From contig JBAZMZ010000001.1 in the NCBI GenBank assembly GCA_041649495.1, positions 623 through 64,622 on the forward strand: a stretch of 64,000 nt of DNA, in the 5' to 3' direction. The translations under genes were made by a program, and so were the position numbers. This DNA comes from Minisyncoccota bacterium (lineage in GTDB: Bacteria > Patescibacteriota > Minisyncoccia > Phycocordibacterales > XYD1-FULL-46-19). This document shows, piece by piece, positions 50,500 to 61,542 of the stretch. Under the pieces are notes generated by a model, which worked only from the letters and a program-made list of their open reading frames with translations, searched no databases and had not been told where the DNA came from. The first letter of the stretch is position 1. Every line of letters starts with the position of its first letter.

Positions 50500-52560
50500 A
50501 TGAATAGCCCTAAAACACGCAAATATAGCGCGGACGATATCGTGGTGCTCGAGGGTCTAGATCCGGTTCGTAAGCGTCCTGGTATGTATATTGGTTCGAC
50601 TGGCGAGGATGGCCTCCACCATCTCTTGGTTGAGATTTTTGACAACTCTCGCGATGAGGCGATGAACGGTTTTTGTAGTGAGATTGAAGTTGCTCTTTTG
50701 CCTGGTAACGCGGTGCGCATTGTGGATAATGGCACAGGGATCCCAGTTGATGTCCATAAAAAAACTAAAGTCTCGGCGCTCGAAACGGTGCTTACTGTTC
50801 TCCACGCCGGTGGCAAATTTGAAGGTGATGGTTATAAAATCTCTGGCGGTTTGCATGGTGTCGGCGCGTCAGTGGTTAACGCCCTTTCGACTTGGCTCAA
50901 GGCCGAGGTTCATCGTGATGGTGGCAAATACGCACAAGAATACGCGCAGGGCAAGAAAAAAAATAATGTTAAAAAGGTGGCTAGTTCCAAGCTTCACGGG
51001 ACCGTTATTATGTTCCAACCTGATCCAACGATTTTTTCTGAAACCGTCTATGATTGGGATCGAGTCGTTAATCATTTGCGTGGGCAGGCTTATCTCGTCA
51101 AAGGTTTGCGGGTTCGAGTGATTGATGCGCGCGACACGAAGGAGAAAATCGATCTCGACAAGATCTTTTGGTTGAAGGAACTCGAGCTTGAGGTGCCGTC
51201 AAAAACTTTCTATTTTGAGGGCGGGTTATTGTCTCTCGTGCGTTATTATAATCGTCACGACAAACCGCTTCATCGCGAGATTTTTTATGTTGAGAAAGAA
51301 GCGAATGAAGTGATGGTAGAAGTAGCGCTTCAATATGTTGATGATATTGATGCCAAAGAAACCAGTTTTACTAACAACACGATTACGCCGGAGGGCGGGA
51401 TGCACTTAACCGGCTTTCGTTCGGCGCTGACCCGAATTCTAAATGATTACGGTAAGAAAAATAATATTTTAAAAGAGAGTGAGGGAGGTTTGACTGGCGA
51501 CGATGTGCGCGAAGGGCTAACCGCGGTGATTTCGGTCAAATTAAGAAACCCGCAATTTGAGGGTCAGACTAAGGCCAAATTGGGGAGTGTGGAGGCTCGC
51601 GGGGCCGTCGAAACGGTCTTCGGCGAGGCCTTTAACGCTTATCTAGAAGAACACCCCGATGACGCCAAAGCTATCATCAGCAAGTCAATTTTGGCTCTCA
51701 AAGCTCGTAAGGCGGCCAAAGCGGCCAAGGATAGCGTGATTCGTAAGGGGGCGCTGGAGGGTATGACCTTGCCAGGCAAATTGGCTGATTGTCAAAGTCG
51801 CGATCCGGAAGAATCCGAAATCTTTATTGTGGAGGGTGATTCGGCCGGTGGCTCGGGTAAACAAGGGCGTGATCGCCATACTCAAGCGATTCTCCCGCTC
51901 AAGGGCAAGATTTTGAATGTCGAGAAAGCGCGTCTTGATAAGATGTTGGCGTTTAAAGAAATCAAATCGCTGATTATTGCGATGGGGGTGGGGATTGGCG
52001 ATATGATGGATCTTTCAAAATTACGTTATCATAAAATTATTATCGCGACCGATGCCGACGTGGACGGGGCGCATATTACGACCTTATTGTTGACTTTCTT
52101 TTTCCGTTATTACAAACCCTTGATTGATGCAGGACATATTTATATCGCTCAACCGCCGTTGTATAAAATTAAAAAAGGTAAAGAAACGGTTTACGCTTAT
52201 ACCGATGAAGAAAAGGCCAAAGTGATTAAGTCGATGGGGGGCAATGAGACTGAAGTGAAAGAGGTTGACGATTCGCTTGAAACGGATATTGGGGGAGAAG
52301 AAAATGAGGGGGGAGAGGAAATAGAAGCTAAGGCCAAATCAGGCAAAATCTCGATTCAACGCTATAAGGGTTTGGGCGAAATGAATCCTGAAGAATTATG
52401 GGAAACCACCATGAACCCGGCTTCTCGCATCTTGAAACAAGTGACCGCGCTCAATGTGGAAGAAGCCGACAAGACCTTCGACGTCTTAATGGGTTCGGAA
52501 GTTGAACCCCGCAAAATCTTCATTCAGACCCACGCGCATTTGGCGAACGTTGACGTCTAG
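50500..52560 (+). CDS. gyrB: DNA gyrase subunit B
   Basis: GHKL ATPase motifs (LEGLDPVRKRPGMYIGS, GLHGVG), the Toprim EGDSAGG motif and the PLKGKILN motif. Confidence 0.9.
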   Translation: MNSPKTRKYSADDIVVLEGLDPVRKRPGMYIGSTGEDGLHHLLVEIFDNSRDEAMNGFCSEIEVALLPGNAVRIVDNGTGIPVDVHKKTKVSALETVLTVLHAGGKFEGDGYKISGGLHGVGASVVNALSTWLKAEVHRDGGKYAQEYAQGKKKNNVKKVASSKLHGTVIMFQPDPTIFSETVYDWDRVVNHLRGQAYLVKGLRVRVIDARDTKEKIDLDKIFWLKELELEVPSKTFYFEGGLLSLVRYYNRHDKPLHREIFYVEKEANEVMVEVALQYVDDIDAKETSFTNNTITPEGGMHLTGFRSALTRILNDYGKKNNILKESEGGLTGDDVREGLTAVISVKLRNPQFEGQTKAKLGSVEARGAVETVFGEAFNAYLEEHPDDAKAIISKSILALKARKAAKAAKDSVIRKGALEGMTLPGKLADCQSRDPEESEIFIVEGDSAGGSGKQGRDRHTQAILPLKGKILNVEKARLDKMLAFKEIKSLIIAMGVGIGDMMDLSKLRYHKIIIATDADVDGAHITTLLLTFFFRYYKPLIDAGHIYIAQPPLYKIKKGKETVYAYTDEEKAKVIKSMGGNETEVKEVDDSLETDIGGEENEGGEEIEAKAKSGKISIQRYKGLGEMNPEELWETTMNPASRILKQVTALNVEEADKTFDVLMGSEVEPRKIFIQTHAHLANVDV

Positions 52561-54398
52561 TTTCGGTTTTTAATTTCAGCGAGAATTTTGGTGATGAAGT
52601 TGGGGAGGGAAACTTTTTCGCTTTTGTCGTCAGAATTGCGAGTCTCGACGGTGATCATTTTTTCTTCCATTTCTTTATCGCCAAGAACGACGAGGTAAGG
52701 GATTTTTTGCATTTTGGCGTTTCTAATCTTTTTGCCCAAGGTCTCATTTGATTCGTCTAGCTCTGTTCTGATGCCATTTTCTTTTAGCGAGGCGAAAACT
52801 TCTTGCGCGTAAGCCATTTGCTTTTCGCTAATTGGTAAAATTTTCACTTGGACTGGCGCGAGCCAAGTGGGGAAGGCACCAGCATAATGTTCAATTAATA
52901 AGCCAATGAATCTTTCGAAACTGCCGAATAAAGCGCGGTGAAGCATGTAGGGTCGTTCTTCTTGGCCCTCACTATTGGTAAAGGTCATCTCGAATCGTTC
53001 GGGCAAGTTAAAGTCAAATTGGAGGGTTGAACATTGCCAGAGTCGACCCAAACAATCCTTAATCTTGAAGTCTAACTTCGGGCCATAGAAAGCGGCTTCC
53101 CCCAATTCTTCTTGAAAGTCGAGCTTTTTTTCTTGGGCAATTTTTCGTAAGACATTTTCGGTGAATTCCCAACCTTCATCGGTGCCAGCATATTTATCTT
53201 TATTTTGCGGATCACGAAGTGAGAGAAAGACTTTAACCGAATTGATATCAAAGCCAAAAGCCTCATAAATGAAGAGAATAAAATCAACAACCTGTTTTAA
53301 TTCTTGTTCAACTTGATCTTGACGACAAATGATGTGGGCATCATCTTGAGTAAAACCGCGAACCCTGGTTAAACCCGATAACTCGCCTCGTTTTTCAAAT
53401 CGATAAACTGTTCCGCACTCGGCCCAACGTAAGGGCAGGTCACGGTAAGAGTGAGGATTATTTTTATAGATTTGAACATGGAAAGGGCAATTCATTGGTT
53501 TGATCAAATATTCCTCTGACTTTTCCGCTTTTTGACCTAATTGTCTCTCTTCTAATGTTTGCCCGACTTCCATTGGTGGATACATACTCTTGTTGTAAAA
53601 GCCCCAATGGCCCGAAGTCTCCCAAAGAATTTTACTACCAATATGGGGACTTCTAACTAAATCATAGCCATTTTCTAAATGTTTGGCATACCAAAAATCC
53701 TCAATCACTCGCCAGAGAATAGCGCCCTTGGGATGCCAGAGAGGTAAACCGAGGCCAACTTTTTCGTCGATATGAAAGAGGTCTAATTCCTTACCCAATT
53801 TACGATGATCCCTTTTTTCGGCTTCGGCTTGTTGGTCGAGGTAAGTGTCGAGCTCGCCTTTGTTGGCAAAAGCGACGCCATAGATACGAGTCAGCATTTT
53901 ATTTTTCTCATCACCCTGCCAATAAGCGCCAGCGACCCGAGTCAGGCGAAAAGCGTCGCGAGCAATTTCGCTCGAGTTAGCCACGTGGGGCCCGGCGCAA
54001 AGATCGGCAAAGTTTGCCTGGCTTTCTGGCGACGAGGTGTCTGATTTATAAATAGAAATTTTTTCACCAGTTTTGTCGAGCACTTCAATTAACTCCAATT
54101 TATAAGGCTCGTTAGCAAAAATTTCTCGCGCTTGATCGGCGCTAATTTCTTCGCGCCTGAAGTCTATATTTTGACTGACCAAGGCACGTATCGCTTTTTC
54201 TAATTCTAATAGCTCATTTTCGGCCGGTACGGTTTGACCAAAATCAAAATCATAATAAAAGCCGTTTTCAATGATCTGGCCAATCCCCAATTTGATCTCG
54301 GGATATTTGGCCTTAATGGCTATGGCTAATAAATGAGCCAGCGAATGACGAATTTTGTTTATGCTGAGCTCTATCGAAGTATTTATATTGTTTTCCAT
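52557..54398 (-). CDS. thrS: threonine--tRNA ligase
   Basis: HSLAHLLA zinc-site region, class II motifs and C-terminal anticodon-binding domain. Confidence 0.9.
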   Translation of the reverse strand: MENNINTSIELSINKIRHSLAHLLAIAIKAKYPEIKLGIGQIIENGFYYDFDFGQTVPAENELLELEKAIRALVSQNIDFRREEISADQAREIFANEPYKLELIEVLDKTGEKISIYKSDTSSPESQANFADLCAGPHVANSSEIARDAFRLTRVAGAYWQGDEKNKMLTRIYGVAFANKGELDTYLDQQAEAEKRDHRKLGKELDLFHIDEKVGLGLPLWHPKGAILWRVIEDFWYAKHLENGYDLVRSPHIGSKILWETSGHWGFYNKSMYPPMEVGQTLEERQLGQKAEKSEEYLIKPMNCPFHVQIYKNNPHSYRDLPLRWAECGTVYRFEKRGELSGLTRVRGFTQDDAHIICRQDQVEQELKQVVDFILFIYEAFGFDINSVKVFLSLRDPQNKDKYAGTDEGWEFTENVLRKIAQEKKLDFQEELGEAAFYGPKLDFKIKDCLGRLWQCSTLQFDFNLPERFEMTFTNSEGQEERPYMLHRALFGSFERFIGLLIEHYAGAFPTWLAPVQVKILPISEKQMAYAQEVFASLKENGIRTELDESNETLGKKIRNAKMQKIPYLVVLGDKEMEEKMITVETRNSDDKSEKVSLPNFITKILAEIKNRN

Positions 54399-54507
54399 AT
54401 TTTTTTAATTAATAATTAGACTTGACTTTTTAATAATTGGGTATAGACTACAAGGACAAATGGCTTCGGCCCGACTCACGCGCAAGCGTGAGGTTACAAG
54501 GAAGAAC

Positions 54508-54906
54508 TCAAGGGATCAAAGCCTTGAGTTTTTTCGTCAACTCACCAAACTCTTCTTCTGGCAAATCTCCGACCTTGTAGCTTAATCTCTTGGCGTCAAT
54601 TAGGCGTATTTGAGATAAAATAGCACTGCCATAAACATTATCTTGGGTAGTTATTTTAAAGTAATAGATAGATTCCTTGTTGTTTGAAGTTAAAGGAATA
54701 CCCCAAAATATTTCATTGTTGAATTTTCTAATGATTATTATTGGCCGGAGAAAATCAATACCTTTGCCATCCTGTTCAAACCCGATGTTTTCTCCAAGAT
54801 GGCAATACCAAATTTCTCGTTCATGAAAAAAGGCTCGATTAATGTCCGGCTCATTCTGAAGTCGACTTTTTAACGGTTGCCAATTTTTGTAATTTTTTTC
54901 TTCCAT
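54508..54906 (-). CDS. PemK/MazF/EndoA-family toxin (mRNA interferase-like)
   Basis: REIWYCHLGENIGFEQDGKG..FLRPIIII...GIPLTS...ILSQIRLIDAKRL..LPEEEFGELTKKL aligns with B. subtilis EndoA and E. coli MazF core motifs. Confidence 0.7.
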   Translation of the reverse strand: MEEKNYKNWQPLKSRLQNEPDINRAFFHEREIWYCHLGENIGFEQDGKGIDFLRPIIIIRKFNNEIFWGIPLTSNNKESIYYFKITTQDNVYGSAILSQIRLIDAKRLSYKVGDLPEEEFGELTKKLKALIP

Positions 54907-54941
54907 TATTTTGATTTTTTAACGAAGATAATAAAACGAAG

Positions 54942-54979
54942 CGCCCCGGCAAAAACACAAAGTGTTTTTGCCGGGGCGA
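54942..54979. terminator. perfect 17-bp palindromic hairpin 35 nt upstream of the mazF-like start; terminator-like on both strands
   Basis: cgccccggcaaaaacac aaag gtgtttttgccggggcg. Confidence 0.5.
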
Positions 54980-55191
54980 TAATTTGTTTAGAATTTTCGC
55001 GGTTCCACCCGACTTCGCCCTGCCGAAGTTCCTTTTTTGAACGAAGGCTGGCAACCTCATTACTGATTAGATTAGTCCCAGCTCGGGAACCCATTTAATG
55101 GGCGAGTGGTTGGTAGCCACTCCAATCTCTAAGGTAATTTAATGTTAGGCCTTATTGAATAAATTGTCAAATTGTTATATCGTATTAGAGT

Positions 55192-56142
55192 ATGAAAAAA
55201 TATCTAATTGTCCTTCTCGTTGTTATTTTAATTAGTATTGTGGCTCGGGCAATTTATTTGAAATTAAATAATTCTCCAGAAGATCAAGCTGTTTTCAACC
55301 GGGTTATCTTAAGGGGAACTAAGGGTGGTTATTATTTTTCTAGTCGCGAGGGTGAATCAATCTATTTGTCCACAAAGGTGGCGGGTCAATACAATGACTT
55401 TTTAGCAGAAAATTTTGATAAAGAATTAAATATTGAGGGTTGGGTTACTGAATATCCTTGTCCCAAAAACGAAGACAAAATGACCCAATGTTTTAATGGC
55501 AAAATGTTAAGCCAATTAGACAGAGTTTCTTTATCTGCTGAATCGTTCCCTGTTCAATCGACGGCCCATCAATATTCTTGCCAAGCGGATAATGATTGCC
55601 ATCTCTCTTGCATTTGGGGAGCGGTTAACGAAGCTTGGTATGTGAACAACGGACAAGAGGAGAATTGTGTCGGTGGTTGTAATGGTATTGGGATGAAAGT
55701 TCATTGCGTTAATAATGTTTGCCACACTTTTCTTGTTAATGATAAACCAGCCGATTTTTACTGCAGTGGTCGCGACAAGAAATTTAATTTGTCAGGACAA
55801 ATTTCTTGCGCTAAAGAAAACGAAGCCATCGGTGCGATGGAGATGCCAAATCAATGTTGTATCGGGTTGTTACCGATGGTCGGCGGTTATAACGAAACGA
55901 ATTGTAGCTTGCCCCCAGCTCCCACTGGTTTGAGTGTTTGTTCAAATTGTGGTGATGGTGTTTGCAACCAAGGAGTTGAAAATAAATGTAATTGCCCGGC
56001 CGATTGTGGTAACGAAAAAAAGAAATGCGAAGATTATGAAAATGTCTGTGGCGAAGCGCTCTTTGAACAACAACAAAAAAGCGGAGACATCTACGATCCG
56101 GATAAAAAATGCTGGTTCAAATGTGTTACCCCGGGCACTTAA
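55192..56142 (+). CDS. secreted cysteine-rich protein (about 36 Cys) with an MKKYLIV signal anchor
   Basis: N-terminal TM/signal; dense Cys pattern (CxxC, CNC, CPADC). Confidence 0.55.
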   Translation: MKKYLIVLLVVILISIVARAIYLKLNNSPEDQAVFNRVILRGTKGGYYFSSREGESIYLSTKVAGQYNDFLAENFDKELNIEGWVTEYPCPKNEDKMTQCFNGKMLSQLDRVSLSAESFPVQSTAHQYSCQADNDCHLSCIWGAVNEAWYVNNGQEENCVGGCNGIGMKVHCVNNVCHTFLVNDKPADFYCSGRDKKFNLSGQISCAKENEAIGAMEMPNQCCIGLLPMVGGYNETNCSLPPAPTGLSVCSNCGDGVCNQGVENKCNCPADCGNEKKKCEDYENVCGEALFEQQQKSGDIYDPDKKCWFKCVTPGT

Positions 56143-56166
56143 TTCTATCATTAATCCATAAATTTT

Positions 56167-56799
56167 ATGAAAAAATATCTAATTGTTCTAATCGTTGTCG
56201 TTCTGGTTATTATCAGCGCCGGAGTTGTTTATTGGAAATTGATTAAACCAATTTCAATTGTTCCCGACCAGGTTGCTTGTACCGAAGAAGCCAAAATTTG
56301 CCCCGATGGTTCAGCTGTTGGCCGTCAAGGCCCAAATTGTGAATTTGCGGAGTGTCCAGTTGCTCAAGCGGTTGACGAAACGGCTGATTGGAAGATTTAC
56401 AAAAATGATAAATATGGGTTTGAGTTTAAGTATCCAAGTAATTGGTCACTATCTAGCCAGGGTTCAGATCAAGAGATAAACATAAGACATTACTCAGATT
56501 CTTCGCAAAAGAAATTTGACGGAGCGATTATTCTTACGGTTGGTATGCCGATTGCAGGTGGCGAAAGACCAGATTTGGTTAAATCAGAAGAAGTAAAGGT
56601 TGATGGACAGATAGCGACGAGAAAGATTGAGAGCTGGAGCGCTCAAAGTAACAATAATTTAAGTTATCAATTGAATATCGAGTCAGGATCAAAAATTCTT
56701 ATCAGTGTTTACGCTTATGACGGAGAACACGGATATAGTTTGGATACTTATAACAGTCTTCTAGATAAAGTAATGGGGACTTTCAAATTCACCCAATAA
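56167..56799 (+). CDS. secreted or anchored hypothetical protein, N-terminal paralog of the preceding gene
   Basis: The first ~30 nt are nearly identical to the start of the 55192 gene (atgaaaaaatatctaattgt). Confidence 0.5.
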   Translation: MKKYLIVLIVVVLVIISAGVVYWKLIKPISIVPDQVACTEEAKICPDGSAVGRQGPNCEFAECPVAQAVDETADWKIYKNDKYGFEFKYPSNWSLSSQGSDQEINIRHYSDSSQKKFDGAIILTVGMPIAGGERPDLVKSEEVKVDGQIATRKIESWSAQSNNNLSYQLNIESGSKILISVYAYDGEHGYSLDTYNSLLDKVMGTFKFTQ

Positions 56800-56805
56800 T
56801 TAAAG

Positions 56806-56935
56806 CTCTTTTACTGCCTCGATAATAATACTCGGCTCACCCCGCCTTCGCTGAAGCTACGGACGGGCAAGCGTTACGATGGGAGATTTTACCGCGGGAG
56901 GTGACGGTCCCTGTTGACTTTAGGCTGAGAATTGA
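56806..56935 (-). pseudogene. degenerate duplicate of the dnaE 3'-terminal coding segment; direct repeat partner of 57665..57745
   Basis: tgcctcgataataatactcggctcacc...gttacgatgggagattttaccgcgggaggtgacgg versus tgcctcaataattatactcggctcacc...gttgcgatgagaaattttcccacggagggcgacga. About 30-nt indel. Translates to ..RGKISHRN.., matching the DnaE tail. Confidence 0.6.
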
Positions 56936-56951
56936 CTAAAATAAAGATAAT

Positions 56952-57218
56952 ATGGATATGAAAGGAATTGACAAAAATTACACTTTTCGCGTTATCATTG
57001 AACCGGAAAGCCCCAAGGGTTTTCATGGTTTTGTACCATTGCTTCGTGGTCTGCATACTTTTGGCGACTCGATGGATGAGGTCAGAAAAAATCTTAAAGA
57101 GGCGATAATTTGTCATTTGCAAGGTTTGGCCAAGGATAAACAGCCAGTTCCCCAAGAAGAAAACACTTTTGAGCTGGTTCAAACCTTTTCAGCTAAAGAA
57201 TTAGCCTTGAGTTGCTAA
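56952..57218 (+). CDS. hicB: HicB-family antitoxin
   Basis: YTFRVIIEPESPKGFHGFVPLLRGLHTFGDSMDEVRKNLKEAIICHLQ (HicB/UPF0150 N-terminal domain). Confidence 0.75.
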   Translation: MDMKGIDKNYTFRVIIEPESPKGFHGFVPLLRGLHTFGDSMDEVRKNLKEAIICHLQGLAKDKQPVPQEENTFELVQTFSAKELALSC

Positions 57219-57225
57219 TTTAATT

Positions 57226-57462
57226 ATGCCGAAATTACCAGTAATTAAAGTCCGAGAGCTGGTAAAAATTTTAGATAGGCTTGGTTTTTTGAAACATCAT
57301 TGTATCGGTAGTCATGCTCAATTCAAACGTATCGATGGTTATCGAATTACAATTCCAATCCATCACGGCAAGGATTTTGACAAGGGAATCTTGAGAGGAA
57401 TAATTGGTGACCTTAATTTAACCGTTGACGAGTTTATTGTTCTCTTAAAAAAGAAAAAATAA
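57226..57462 (+). CDS. hicA: HicA-family toxin (YcfA-like mRNA interferase)
   Basis: MPKLPVIKVRELVKILDRLGF...GSHAQFKRIDGYRITIPIHHGKDFDKGILRGII. Confidence 0.75.
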   Translation: MPKLPVIKVRELVKILDRLGFLKHHCIGSHAQFKRIDGYRITIPIHHGKDFDKGILRGIIGDLNLTVDEFIVLLKKKK

Positions 57463-57483
57463 TTATTATTAATTTTTAATTTA

Positions 57484-57663
57484 ATGATGAAAAAATATAT
57501 AATTATTGCTGTTGTTGTCGTTATTGTAATAATAACCCTAAGTTTTTACAGGATGACAGGGCACTGTCTTTCTGGTTACGATATCGCCGGGGGTTGTGAA
57601 AAAGAGACTTCTGGAATTACGTGTTTTGATGATGTTTTGACAAAGTGTCGTTTTGGGTTTTAA
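57484..57663 (+). CDS. 59-aa Cys-containing small protein with an MMKKYIII signal anchor; third member of the MKKY paralog set
   Basis: Shares its N-terminus with the 55192 and 56167 genes; not in the ORF track because it is under 60 aa. Confidence 0.4.
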   Translation: MMKKYIIIAVVVVIVIITLSFYRMTGHCLSGYDIAGGCEKETSGITCFDDVLTKCRFGF

Positions 57664-57664
57664 A

Positions 57665-60600
57665 TTATAATTCTTTCATTGCCTCAATAATTATACTCGG
57701 CTCACCGTTGCGATGAGAAATTTTCCCACGGAGGGCGACGATTTTGTCGGGGATTAAGAGCTCGCGATATTTTTCGTAGACATCAGAAAAGGCGACCGCT
57801 TCGATCGAGTCGGTGAAGTCAAACATTTTGATAAAGGCCATCTTTTTGTTATTTTTGGTGATTATTTCGCGCACGGTATCAATAACGCCGCCGGTAATGG
57901 CGGGGAAGCCTTCTTTTTGTTCGCGATGATGTTTGATGGTATTTTCGGGTTTGTCGAAGCGGTCACGATAAGGTTCAAGCGGATGGCCCGAGACATAGAG
58001 ACCCAATAATTCTTTTTCCCAGGCGAGTTTGGTTTTAGGGTCAACCGGCTCAACTTCTTTTAATCGCAAGGCCGGCGGAGTTGCTGTTTCTGGTAATAAG
58101 CCAAAGAGCGAAGTTTGGTTGGCATTATTGCCCAATTCTTGCCGATTGAAGGCGAGGGCTTCATCCACATTGCCGAGGACTTGTCCGCGTTCCACCCCCA
58201 AGCTATCAAAGGCACCAGCTTTAGCGAGGGCTTCGAGCGATTTCTTGTTCATATTTTTGTGCTTCACGCGTGAGAGAAAATCGGCATAATCTTGATATAA
58301 ACCATTTTGTTTTCGTTCTTCCACGATAAAATGAGAAATCTCTTGACCGAGATTTTTGATCGTCACCAGACCAAATCTAATCCGGTCGAGACCGTCGGTA
58401 TTCTTTTTTGATAATTTTTCAGCTGCTTCGGTTAAGCCACTTGAACCGAGGCCTTTAATCACCGTGAAGTCTTCGAAACTTTCATTAATATCAGGGGGCA
58501 AAACGGGCAAATTCATTCGGCGACACTCGGTAATAACCTCGGCAATTTTTTCGGTGTCACCCGCTTCGGCCGAGAGCACGGCCGTCATATATTCGGAGGG
58601 GTAATTGGCTTTTAAGTAACTAGTTTGGTAAGCGACTCGGCCGTAACTAGCGGCGTGGGCTTTGTTGAAGCCGTAAGCGGCAAAGGGTTCGATCAAAAGC
58701 CAGAGTTCGTGGGCCTTTTTCTCAGACAAACCGTTTTTTACTAGACCGTCAAACAATTTACCTTTTTGCGCCTCCATTTCTTTAGGAATTTTTTTACCCA
58801 TCGCTTTGCGCAATTTGTCGGCCTCAATCCACGAATAGCCGGCTAAGTGGATGGCGGTGAGCATGACATCATCTTGGTAAACCAATACGCCGAACGAGTG
58901 GTGAAGAATCGGTTCGAGTCGCGGGTCAAGATATTTAACCAGAGCGGGGTTGTGTTTGCGTTTAATATATTCGGGAATCATTTCCATTGGACCCGGACGA
59001 TACAGGGCGACCATGGCGTTAATATCGAAAATCGTGGTGGGTTGAAGCTCCTTAAGCCAACGGGTCATGCCCGCGCCACTAAGTTGGAAAAGACCAATTG
59101 TTTCGCCGCGAGCCAGCATCGCAAAAGTTTTCGTATCGTCGAGCGGGATATTGTTGATGTCAATAATCACGCCATGAACTTTTTTAATAATTTTAATGGC
59201 GTCTTCGAGGATGGAGAGATTGCGAATCCCGAGGAAATCATATTTCAGCAAGCCCGCATCCTCCACGGCGTGCATCTCGTATTGAGTAATGGTTTTGCCA
59301 CCCTTAGGGTCAAATTGAACGGGCGTGAAGTCGGTAATCTCGGTGGGGGAAATGACGACGCCAGCGGCGTGGACCGAAATATGTCGAGCGCAACCCTCGA
59401 TTTTTTTCGCCAAGTCAATAATTTTTTTGGTGTCGGCATCTTTCTTATACATTTCTTCTAATTCTGGCACCATCTCTAGCGCGTGGGTGATGGTCATCGG
59501 AAAGCCTTGTGAGCCCATCGGGATTAATTTTGAAATTTGATCGCCAATCGCGTAAGGGTAACCAAGGGCGCGAGACACATCGCGCACTGCCCCGCGGGCC
59601 ATCATTGAACCGAAAGTGCCAATTTGGGCGACATTATTCTCGCCGTATTTATGGCGAGCATACTCAATAATCTCATCGCGTCGTTTGTCGGCGTAATCCA
59701 TATCGATATCGGGCGGCGACGGTCGGTCGGCATTCAAGAACCGCTCGAAGGGCAGTTCATAATAGAGCGGGTCAACATTAGTAATGCCGATAATAAAAGA
59801 AATAAGCGAACCCGCGGCCGAGCCTCGAGTATTAGTAAAAATCCCCGTTTCGTGAGCGTGATTAATAAGGTCGGACACGACGAGAAAATAGGGCGAATAA
59901 CCTTTTTTGCTAATCACCTCGAATTCATATTCCATTCTGGTTCGAGCCAACTCGGCTCGGTCAGGATTTTGTTCAATATATTTAGCCAAACCGGCTTCAG
60001 CCATTTTTTTGAGTTCTTGATTATAATCAGAATCAGGGGGCACGGGATAACGGGGGAAGGTCCATTGGCCTAATTCAAGTGTGACATCACAGCGCTCGGC
60101 AATCTTCAAGCTATTTTCAATGGCTTCGGGGACTTGGGCAAAGTTTTTCGCCATCTCTTCACTAGAAAGAAAAGAAAAATCTTCCTCTGTATTAGTGACG
60201 CCCTTCAAATCAGACAAATCATTGCCAGTTTGGATGGCGAGCAGGGTGTGGTGAGCTTCGGCGTCGTCTCTGTTTAGATAATGTGTATCCTGGGTCGCGA
60301 CTAGGGGAATATTTAATTTTTTCCCCAATTCGATAACTTTAGCCGTAATTTCGGTTTGGTTTTCAACAAACGGGTGGTGCATTATTTCGAGATAATAATT
60401 GTCAACGCCAAAAATTTCTTGGTATTCTTTGATCACCCCCTCCGCTTTTTCGGGTTCATAAACTAAAGTTTTCGAGAGCTCTCCGCCCCGACAACCCGAG
60501 AGACAAATCAAGCCCTCGTGATATTCACGCAACAATTCTTTATCCGCCCGTGGTTTGTAATAATAGCCTTCGAGGTTGGCTTTGGTGACAATTTTAATTA

Positions 60601-60898
60601 AGTTATGATAACCCTCAAGATTTTTGGCTAAAAGGGTTAGATGGTAGCGTCGCGCATCGACATGGGGCTCCTTATTAAATCGACTGCGGGGGGCGACATA
60701 AATTTCGCAACCTAAAATCGGTTTAATTTCTTGTTTGAGGCATTCTTTATAAAATTCGATGACGCCATACATACTCCCGTGGTCAGTAATGGCCACGGCT
60801 GGCATACCGAATTCTTTGGCTTTTTTGACCAATTGGGGGATTTTGATGAGCCCGTCCAAGAGACTATAATGGGTGTGATTATGGAGATGCACGAACAT
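57665..60898 (-). CDS. dnaE: DNA polymerase III alpha subunit
   Basis: PHP domain (HLHNHTHYSLLDG), polymerase core; 1077 aa from MFVHLHNH. Confidence 0.9.
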   Translation of the reverse strand: MFVHLHNHTHYSLLDGLIKIPQLVKKAKEFGMPAVAITDHGSMYGVIEFYKECLKQEIKPILGCEIYVAPRSRFNKEPHVDARRYHLTLLAKNLEGYHNLIKIVTKANLEGYYYKPRADKELLREYHEGLICLSGCRGGELSKTLVYEPEKAEGVIKEYQEIFGVDNYYLEIMHHPFVENQTEITAKVIELGKKLNIPLVATQDTHYLNRDDAEAHHTLLAIQTGNDLSDLKGVTNTEEDFSFLSSEEMAKNFAQVPEAIENSLKIAERCDVTLELGQWTFPRYPVPPDSDYNQELKKMAEAGLAKYIEQNPDRAELARTRMEYEFEVISKKGYSPYFLVVSDLINHAHETGIFTNTRGSAAGSLISFIIGITNVDPLYYELPFERFLNADRPSPPDIDMDYADKRRDEIIEYARHKYGENNVAQIGTFGSMMARGAVRDVSRALGYPYAIGDQISKLIPMGSQGFPMTITHALEMVPELEEMYKKDADTKKIIDLAKKIEGCARHISVHAAGVVISPTEITDFTPVQFDPKGGKTITQYEMHAVEDAGLLKYDFLGIRNLSILEDAIKIIKKVHGVIIDINNIPLDDTKTFAMLARGETIGLFQLSGAGMTRWLKELQPTTIFDINAMVALYRPGPMEMIPEYIKRKHNPALVKYLDPRLEPILHHSFGVLVYQDDVMLTAIHLAGYSWIEADKLRKAMGKKIPKEMEAQKGKLFDGLVKNGLSEKKAHELWLLIEPFAAYGFNKAHAASYGRVAYQTSYLKANYPSEYMTAVLSAEAGDTEKIAEVITECRRMNLPVLPPDINESFEDFTVIKGLGSSGLTEAAEKLSKKNTDGLDRIRFGLVTIKNLGQEISHFIVEERKQNGLYQDYADFLSRVKHKNMNKKSLEALAKAGAFDSLGVERGQVLGNVDEALAFNRQELGNNANQTSLFGLLPETATPPALRLKEVEPVDPKTKLAWEKELLGLYVSGHPLEPYRDRFDKPENTIKHHREQKEGFPAITGGVIDTVREIITKNNKKMAFIKMFDFTDSIEAVAFSDVYEKYRELLIPDKIVALRGKISHRNGEPSIIIEAMKEL

Positions 60899-60918
60899 GA
60901 TAGTATGTAGTATATAGT

Positions 60919-61542
60919 ATGTCGTATGTAGGGGCAAAAAAGTGGCTAATTGGGATAGATGAAGCCGGGCGGGGGGCGTTGGCCGGGCCGGTGGCGGTGG
61001 GGTTGGTGGCGTGGGAAATTAAAAAGTGGCTGGCGATTAAAAAGTTTTTAAAAGATTATCCGGTTGGTAAAGATTCGAAAAAACTAACGCCCAAACAGCG
61101 CGATTTTTGGTTTGGGAAGATTGAGGAATTAAGTGTTAAACATCCGGTGTTTAACACTGTGACGTTGGTGAGCAATAAAATAATAGATAAAAAAGGGATA
61201 AATTTTACTATTAAGACTGGGATAAAAAAGAATTTAGAAAACTTTCAGCGACTTGGAAGTTTAACTTCCAAGTCGCTGGTGCTTCTGGATGGTGGTTTAA
61301 AAGCCCCGGCCGAGTGGGTCAATCAGCAAACGATCATTAAAGGTGACGAGAAAGAATTAATCATTTCCTTGGCTTCAATCGTGGCCAAAGTTTCAAGAGA
61401 TAGAAAAATGATCAAATTAAGTCAGAAATATCCTCATCACAGCCTTCATCAGCACAAAGGTTATGGTACCAAACTCCATTATCAAAAAATCACCGAATTT
61501 GGTGTTTTAATTATCCACCGACAAAGCTACTTGTCTAATTAA
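60919..61542 (+). CDS. rnhB: ribonuclease HII
   Basis: LIGIDEAGRGALAGPVAV active-site motif. Confidence 0.85.
   Translation: MSYVGAKKWLIGIDEAGRGALAGPVAVGLVAWEIKKWLAIKKFLKDYPVGKDSKKLTPKQRDFWFGKIEELSVKHPVFNTVTLVSNKIIDKKGINFTIKTGIKKNLENFQRLGSLTSKSLVLLDGGLKAPAEWVNQQTIIKGDEKELIISLASIVAKVSRDRKMIKLSQKYPHHSLHQHKGYGTKLHYQKITEFGVLIIHRQSYLSN

Follow-up and report, generated by a model that had tools for sequence, protein, structure and literature searches.

INTRODUCTION

Genomic islands and other integrative elements enter the 3′ ends of tRNA genes, tmRNA genes and some protein-coding genes and regenerate them. Here we describe a comparable footprint at the 3′ end of dnaE, the gene for the alpha subunit of DNA polymerase III, in a 64,000-nucleotide stretch of DNA from an uncultured groundwater bacterium of the Minisyncoccota (GenBank assembly GCA_041649495.1, contig JBAZMZ010000001.1, positions 623 to 64,622 of the forward strand). 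This whole stretch is referred to as the window. A second dnaE tail lies beyond a short cassette that holds the toxin-antitoxin genes hicB and hicA and a small open reading frame (ORF). As in genomic islands that rebuild a gene end, direct repeats flank the insert, the gene is intact and the displaced end is found at the far border; toxin-antitoxin cargo is common in such islands and the cargo here is hicBA. Unlike islands, the dnaE site has no integrase and no fixed core or boundary, its inserts measure only 0.35–2 kb, housekeeping-type genes occur among the cargo and the insert was passed on vertically.

In homology-facilitated illegitimate recombination, linear DNA uses homology to integrate at one end and is joined illegitimately at the other (PMC3240628). 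As found in naturally transformable bacteria, one end of the incoming DNA lies in a homologous gene and the other is joined without homology, which is also the arrangement that we propose for dnaE. The two cases have in common the lack of an element-encoded recombinase, ordinary chromosomal cargo from a relative and a varying join position, with the difference that the dnaE case is inferred from genome comparison alone. To our knowledge, it is not a described feature of this process that the same gene end is affected again and again in many lineages. The sequence comparisons lead us to favor, with moderate confidence, the reading that host recombination at the dnaE 3′ end once acquired genes from a related genome, an old event of which the locus is the footprint.

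RESULTS AND DISCUSSION

The repeated dnaE tail

A second dnaE tail is present in direct orientation at 56800–56905 and, together with the working tail (copy 1), it brackets hicB, hicA and the small ORF MKKY59. An earlier note, made from the letters of this DNA alone, had proposed that the tail recurs beyond the cassette, and pairwise alignment bears this out: the local alignment of the two copies scores 63 against a best score of 33.5 among 1388 other tiles of the window (z of about 18 relative to shuffled sequences). The note had set the start of the repeat at 56806, whereas copy 2 begins at its own stop codon at 56800. The three bracketed genes had been named correctly, as Pfam matches for hicB and hicA and the ORF for MKKY59 confirm. 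The features of the locus are given below in window positions; L-numbers denote loci, contigs or genomes used for comparison.

57665–60937, minus strand: dnaE, DNA polymerase III alpha subunit, from ORF and Pfam; called starts lie slightly downstream of that of the longest ORF
57665–57739, minus strand: copy 1, the working dnaE 3′ tail, ending ..VALRGKISHRNGEPSIIIEAMKEL and the stop codon at 57665–57667
57484–57663, plus strand: MKKY59, a Cys-containing ORF of 59 amino acids; its N-terminus is hydrophobic, and it runs toward dnaE and ends 1 nt from the dnaE stop
57226–57462, plus strand: hicA toxin gene, 78 amino acids (PF07927, E 1.5e-12, 47.8 bits, cut-off 27)
56952–57218, plus strand: hicB-like antitoxin gene, 88 amino acids (PF15919, E 6.9e-8, 33.1 bits, cut-off 27)
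56914–56942, plus strand: promoter-like site TTGACT-17-TAAAAT, 5′ of hicB at the copy 2 junction, kept in L204 and L211
56872–56905, minus strand: proximal part of copy 2, ..VTS RGKISHRN, made about 27 nt shorter than in L204 by a deletion
56841–56871, no strand assigned: GC-rich palindromic mini-element (hairpin) of 31 nt between the Asn and Gly codons of copy 2, shifting the frame
56800–56840, minus strand: distal part of copy 2, the displaced tail GEPSIIIEAVKEL with its stop at 56800–56802; the first G is common to the insert boundary
56167–56799, plus strand: MKKY210, the convergent neighbor of the dnaE tail (copy 2), with a stop at 56797–56799 that adjoins the copy 2 stop

On the minus strand dnaE ends ..VAL RGKISHRN GEPSIIIEAMKEL and stop, a segment that falls inside the Pfam OB-fold match (DnaE residues 1017–1090). 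In copy 2 the residues RGKISHRN are followed by the 31-nt insert, whose boundary is uncertain by 1–2 nt, and then by the last part of the tail in a shifted frame. Without the insert the two window tails are 82% identical over 66 nt (22 codons). Third codon positions account for ten of the 12 differences, which gives nine synonymous codons against one amino-acid change, a Met/Val exchange at which Val prevails among relatives. The description of copy 2 as decayed does not fit these counts; apart from them, copy 2 gained one mini-element and lost about 27 nt in one deletion. The indel reported earlier is real and 31 nt long, but it turned out to be a GC-rich palindromic mini-element common to many metagenome contexts.

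In L204, the nearest relative, the two copies differ by 14 synonymous codons and one non-synonymous codon over 32 codons, an excess that is significant (P = 0.009) even with half of the changes placed in an unconstrained copy. Neutral decay would be mostly non-synonymous, and the mostly synonymous differences argue for tails from two functional dnaE alleles. The two tails look like alleles that diverged while both were working gene ends. The counts of nine to one in the window and 14 to one in L204 further indicate that the regenerated segment is allelic and was not copied from the resident tail, as expected for homology-facilitated illegitimate recombination. A diversity-generating retroelement can be dismissed, since copy 2 has A at only 1 of 12 differing sites in the window and 3 of 19 in L204, and no reverse transcriptase was found by Pfam scans of window positions 38–64 kb and the interval ORFs. 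No Rfam family matched at the repeat or the hairpin. Translation of copy 2 was also rejected, as none of the genomes examined has a start codon or open frame that runs into it.

Relatives with and without the insertion

The DnaE relatives are metagenome assemblies of Paceibacterota ("Vogelbacteria"-like), with amino-acid identities up to 88–90%. They have the conserved gene order nusB, L32 gene, rnhB, dnaE, a variable interval, thrS and gyrB, in which the interval between dnaE and thrS ranges from about 0 to 3.4 kb. Positions 54300–58400 of the window are 100% identical among contigs from the four independent samples ERZ27247350, 3300014204, 3300035208 and SRR8542065; three of these contigs cover the region completely and the fourth covers 55949–58400. 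Because of this identity, and with homologous structures in six other species-level genomes, an assembly artefact is ruled out.

The comparison of relatives that the earlier note had called for revealed both empty sites and the same insertion. A single tail without hicBA is present in L002, L049, L221, L222 and L223, and in L002 and L223 the dnaE stop adjoins the stop of a convergent MKKY-type gene. In the window, it is copy 2 whose stop codon adjoins the MKKY210 stop (TAA next to TTA), and copy 2 has the same relation in L021 and L220. Since this contact is the same as the dnaE arrangement in L002 and L223, copy 2 is the original tail and MKKY210 the original neighbor. In the ancestral state given by these relatives, dnaE and an MKKY-type gene converge and their stop codons abut. 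The proposal of an insertion that pushed the original tail aside and brought a replacement is supported by the MKKY210 contact and by the single-tail relatives that lack hicBA.

L204 has the order thrS, MKKY228, copy 2, hicB, hicA, MKKY110 and dnaE. Its dnaE 3′ end is 86–87% identical to that of the window at the nucleotide level and its HicA is 86% identical. Copy 2 in L204 is an uninterrupted run of 31 codons (LLVPDKIVALRGKISHRNGEPSIIIEAVKEL and stop) without hairpin and without start codon. The promoter-like junction between copy 2 and hicB is common to both genomes, apart from the extra deletion in the window. Since the insertion is shared and the cassette (84.5% identity) has diverged to a similar extent as dnaE (86%), the insert has been inherited vertically since before the split of the window and L204 lineages, and a recent event is not compatible with these values. 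In L211, HicA is 76% identical and copy 2 is reduced to a 17-nt remnant.

Insertions at the dnaE 3′ end

The event shared by the window and L204 has its junction 96 nt before the dnaE stop. Insertions with other junctions and other cargo were found at the same gene end:

L015: junction 122 nt before the stop; cargo a starch synthase of 494 amino acids (glgA, same strand as dnaE)
L004: junction 61 nt before the stop; cargo an ORF of 312 amino acids without Pfam match
L011: junction about 80 nt before the stop; cargo an ORF of 55 amino acids

The boundary in these independent insertions is not constant (−122, −96, about −80 and −61), and the cargo segments of L015 and L011 are not homologous. 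In L004 and L015 copy 2 is about 90% identical to the genome's own tail. A second tail, defined as lying downstream on the same strand with at least 12 of the last 14 residues, was present in 6 of 74 genomes against a background maximum of 6/14. A scan of 638 long-ORF ends gave five with a downstream copy, four of them dnaE. The only non-dnaE case is an RNase III-like gene in L064 (minus-strand ORF ending at reverse-complement coordinate 15520), whose 3′ end (..GKSKQDAEQGAAADGLKKKGWAK and stop) recurs about 1.5 kb downstream. The footprint at dnaE is spread over eight genomes in two candidate orders, with differing cargo, and by these comparisons the dnaE 3′ end is a recurrent hotspot. The suggestion that the cassette is the remnant of a larger island is not supported: MKKY210 is the ancestral neighbor and does not belong to an island, and the independent events have different junctions and ordinary cargo.

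Tandem tails and codon conservation in copy 2

Four relatives (L001, L021, L006 and L220) carry two tails in tandem with the hairpin but without cargo. The layout is an intact tail with stop codon, a 13-nt spacer, (decayed GKIS)HRN, the insert, and GEPSI[IV][IL]EAVKEL followed by a stop. The insert is at the same site in each; it is identical to that of the window at 31/31 positions in L001 and 30/31 in L220, and L021 and L006 have a 30-nt form. The 31-nt form causes a frameshift in copy 2 and the 30-nt form an in-frame TAG. A tree of the dnaE body gave the groups (window, L204), (L001, L220), L021, L006 and (L002, L004). Hairpin and cargo are each mosaic on this tree, which makes several events the simplest reading: more than one event at the dnaE tail site, then deletions between the repeated tails, in an order that cannot be assigned with confidence.

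The displaced tail is well preserved as a coding sequence. For the 14 distal codons of copy 2, at least 22 substitutions are needed to relate five lineages, and 17 of these are at third positions. Only two change an amino acid; both are conservative and each matches the genome's own copy 1 (Val in L001, Leu in L006). The probability of such a codon-intact copy under neutrality is about 1e-9 for this five-lineage count. L220, taken as a sixth lineage, adds no amino-acid change. Of the six reading frames, that of DnaE is the best conserved, which rules out coding constraint exerted from the other strand. The two copies of L220, like those of L006, agree at only 69% of positions (29/42 nt) yet encode an identical peptide. 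Among 153 tail pairs (mean identity 30.9/42), two of the four closest (38/42) join a displaced tail to the working tail of another lineage. In one of these two pairs window copy 2 is matched to copy 1 of L204, and in the other L001 copy 2 is matched to the only tail of L222. L211, L004 and L015 have a clearly decayed copy 2.

One explanation is that copy 2 is functional and kept by selection, either as a reusable gene end in cassette gain and loss or as a homology anchor for swapping of MKKY genes. The near-invariant distal codons across six lineages, the well-kept DnaE frame, the co-variation of residue variants with copy 1 and the closeness of displaced and working tails would all agree with this, as would the finding that, inward of both tails, MKKY bodies have been replaced between the window and L204. 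However, the copy lacks a start codon or open frame leading in, the hairpin breaks the frame or adds a stop, and decay has gone far in L211 (the 17-nt remnant), L004 (two indels) and L015 (a stop codon). The informative codons also number only 14, and we regard a selected function as unlikely. For the intact codons we favor the explanation that working tails would have overwritten copy 2 time and again as this fast-changing interval recombined, because of the closeness of displaced and working tails and the MKKY body replacement beside both tails in the window as compared with L204.

Origin of the second tail

Host recombination would explain why the tails are allelic, why the junctions vary and the cargo is ordinary, why no integrase is present and why each tail has a convergent MKKY-type gene beside it, as the donor locus itself would have. 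Starting from an ancestor with convergent dnaE and MKKY-type genes and abutting stops, a donor fragment from a related genome would have brought in a dnaE 3′ end, its convergent MKKY-type gene and hicA-hicB. The fragment would have recombined by homology inside dnaE, and its far end would have been joined illegitimately about 96 nt before the recipient dnaE stop. A single crossover with a circularized fragment would give the same product. As a result dnaE would end in the donor tail (copy 1), with the recipient's last ~96 nt (copy 2) beyond the cargo and still beside MKKY210. After this event copy 2 would have carried the palindromic mini-element and, in the window lineage, lost about 27 nt. 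The cargo-free tandem tails of close relatives may reflect cargo loss or an earlier event of like kind. The hotspot could arise because homology in a conserved essential gene admits foreign DNA and only events that rebuild the gene end survive.

Several observations weigh against acquisition by host recombination. The window shares the hairpin with L001, L220, L021 and L006, yet the sister L204 lacks it, and the hicBA cargo occurs only in the window and L204; this mosaic distribution requires additional deletions or exchanges. A single old displacement would not lead one to expect a codon-intact copy 2 in six lineages. As no donor genome turned up, neither the illegitimate junction nor any microhomology can be inspected, and a sliding-window comparison gave no clear recombination breakpoint inside dnaE. 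Finally, all four junction classes lie 61–122 nt from the stop, whereas random joins would be expected further upstream too. The confinement to the last 122 nt may reflect quick loss of longer repeats.

A site-specific integrative element, surviving as a remnant or satellite, would have an attP that mimics the dnaE tail and an integrase since lost or acting in trans. Direct repeats around cargo next to an empty site in relatives, together with the regenerated gene end, are what such an element leaves behind. The two window copies share an identical run of 14 nt (ATACTCGGCTCACC), the same gene end was struck repeatedly in two candidate orders, and toxin-antitoxin genes are typical island cargo. 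The earlier note pictured an integrative element. Pfam scans of window positions 38–64 kb and of all interval ORFs of relatives, however, gave no integrase, recombinase or transposase, and the gene calls of L198–L204 and L220 contained no recombinase. There was no tRNA in the same part of the window or in the dnaE-thrS intervals of relatives that were examined, and no phage or plasmid match was found. The repeat boundaries vary between events, a plain starch synthase is among the cargo, the cassette co-diverged with its host and related hicBA pairs occur elsewhere without flanking repeats. We judge such an element improbable, and a self-mobile one is not supported.

In-situ tandem duplication of a unit of dnaE tail plus convergent MKKY gene, after which the paralogues would have diverged and hicBA would have come to lie between them, would place a convergent MKKY-type gene beside each tail, as is observed. 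It would also be in line with the similar 5′ ends of three MKKY genes (47 nt, 77–81%), a 23-nt exact match between the starts of MKKY110 in L204 and MKKY210 in the window, and the similarity of the L004 and L015 copies to their own tails. A stranded copy should gather random changes, though, and the observed differences are synonymous. The MKKY59 and MKKY110 bodies are unrelated to those of MKKY210 and MKKY228, and glgA in L015, on the dnaE strand, does not fit the proposed unit. We give this duplication a low probability.

A site-specific mobile hicBA unit, also raised in the earlier note, is ruled out by more distant hicBA homologues (60–67% identity) that lie between other housekeeping genes without flanking repeats. 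With these homologues and no signs of a mobile element, the repeat belongs to the dnaE site and not to the cargo. The hairpin as cause of the target duplication is likewise ruled out, since no duplicated flanks occur at its other contexts.

The palindromic mini-element

Rickettsia palindromic elements are palindromic repeats of about 100–150 nt that occur in frame in protein-coding genes. The mini-element in copy 2 resembles these elements (named in PMC10969869) as a palindromic unit inside housekeeping genes that keeps the frame. Unlike them it is only ~31–33 nt long, occurs once per contig and in very diverse genomes, and in copy 2 lies out of frame or introduces a stop.

The GC-rich palindrome (GCYTGCCCGCCRTAGCTTCAGCGAMGGCGGGG) was found at 56841–56871 of the window and in L090, L180, L085, L117, L114 and L102. 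Its core 20-mer is present in 117 metagenome contigs with 97 distinct contexts, some hits being chance matches to a folP motif, and the flanks range from 36 to 70% GC. The element sits in frame within ThrS (aligned to the window ThrS), TatD-like, LeuRS-like and LysRS-like ORFs on AT-rich contigs resembling the candidate phyla radiation. Many unrelated sites, including in-frame positions within conserved genes, are what defines a palindromic mini-element; many copies per genome were not seen, with one in the 64-kb window and one per contig. One verified CRISPR array, in L102, carries the element as a spacer. Positions 1–125 of L191 consist of tandem 71-nt units that each hold a hairpin-like copy of the mini-element, an arrangement that does not clearly qualify as a CRISPR array. 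The hairpin predicted for the insert does not exceed shuffled sequence in stability. A search for DnaE proteins with the mini-element in frame in the working tail gave only two short proteins, both without the insert. Sequence and keyword searches found no description of the element in the literature searched.

hicBA and the MKKY genes

Both domains of a HicAB system are present, and the genes are co-oriented and 7 nt apart. The HicB match is limited to positions 1–64 of the 123 in the PF15919 profile (the N-terminal domain), and the 88-residue protein has no other Pfam match. By family membership we take HicA to be a predicted mRNA interferase and HicB its predicted neutralizer, and hicBA is presumably an ordinary type II toxin-antitoxin pair. 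Expression would start from the TTGACT-17-TAAAAT promoter at the copy 2 junction. Features in common with HicAB type II modules are both Pfam domains, adjacent co-oriented genes and the promoter-like site upstream. The differences are that the antitoxin gene comes first, that HicB is so short and that no DNA-binding domain was detected by Pfam.

The counterpart of MKKY59 in L204 has an unrelated body of 110 amino acids (MKKY110) behind a similar signal-like start. The N-terminal half of MKKY210 is kept in L021, L006, L204 and L220, and the C-terminal half is non-homologous between relatives. In the window the 5′ ends of three MKKY genes are alike in DNA (55192–55238, 56167–56213 and 57487–57533), and the gene bodies are unrelated to one another or replaced between sister genomes. 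The pattern looks like cassette-style turnover of putative secreted-protein genes behind a conserved signal-like start.

The neighboring thrS region

ThrS (52557–54398, minus strand) is mosaic in comparison with close relatives, with identities of 70–88% in the N-terminal part, only 27–60% in the catalytic core and 55–83% in the C-terminal part. By contrast, DnaE and GyrB are about 88% identical to those of close relatives. Recombination may have exchanged the catalytic core of ThrS. A weak T-box leader match with the GGGTGGAACCGCG motif was found at 54969–55229 (28 bits, E 1.4e-3; within 54508–55229, minus strand), together with a perfect 17-bp hairpin at 54942–54978. A PemK/MazF-like toxin gene (54508–54906) has this T-box-like leader upstream and lies between the leader and thrS. 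L204 lacks both the PemK/MazF-like gene and MKKY316.

Implications

Little is known about gene gain in the tiny genomes of uncultured Patescibacteria, in which recognizable mobile elements are few. The dnaE locus is a concrete and repeated case in which DNA enters the end of an essential gene and the end is rebuilt, with no integrase needed. A further and rather doubtful extension is that duplicated dnaE tails form a recombinase-free cassette slot in Paceibacterota, where cargo would be gained, swapped or lost via the tails and the stranded tail would be reused or overwritten, hence its perfect codons. If this were true, toxin-antitoxin genes, variable secreted-protein genes and metabolic genes would be the cargo, exchanged by host recombination between the tails. 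The locus also poses a puzzle open to testing, in that a stranded gene end evolves like a coding sequence, and in the palindromic element it provides a marker for dating the events at this site.

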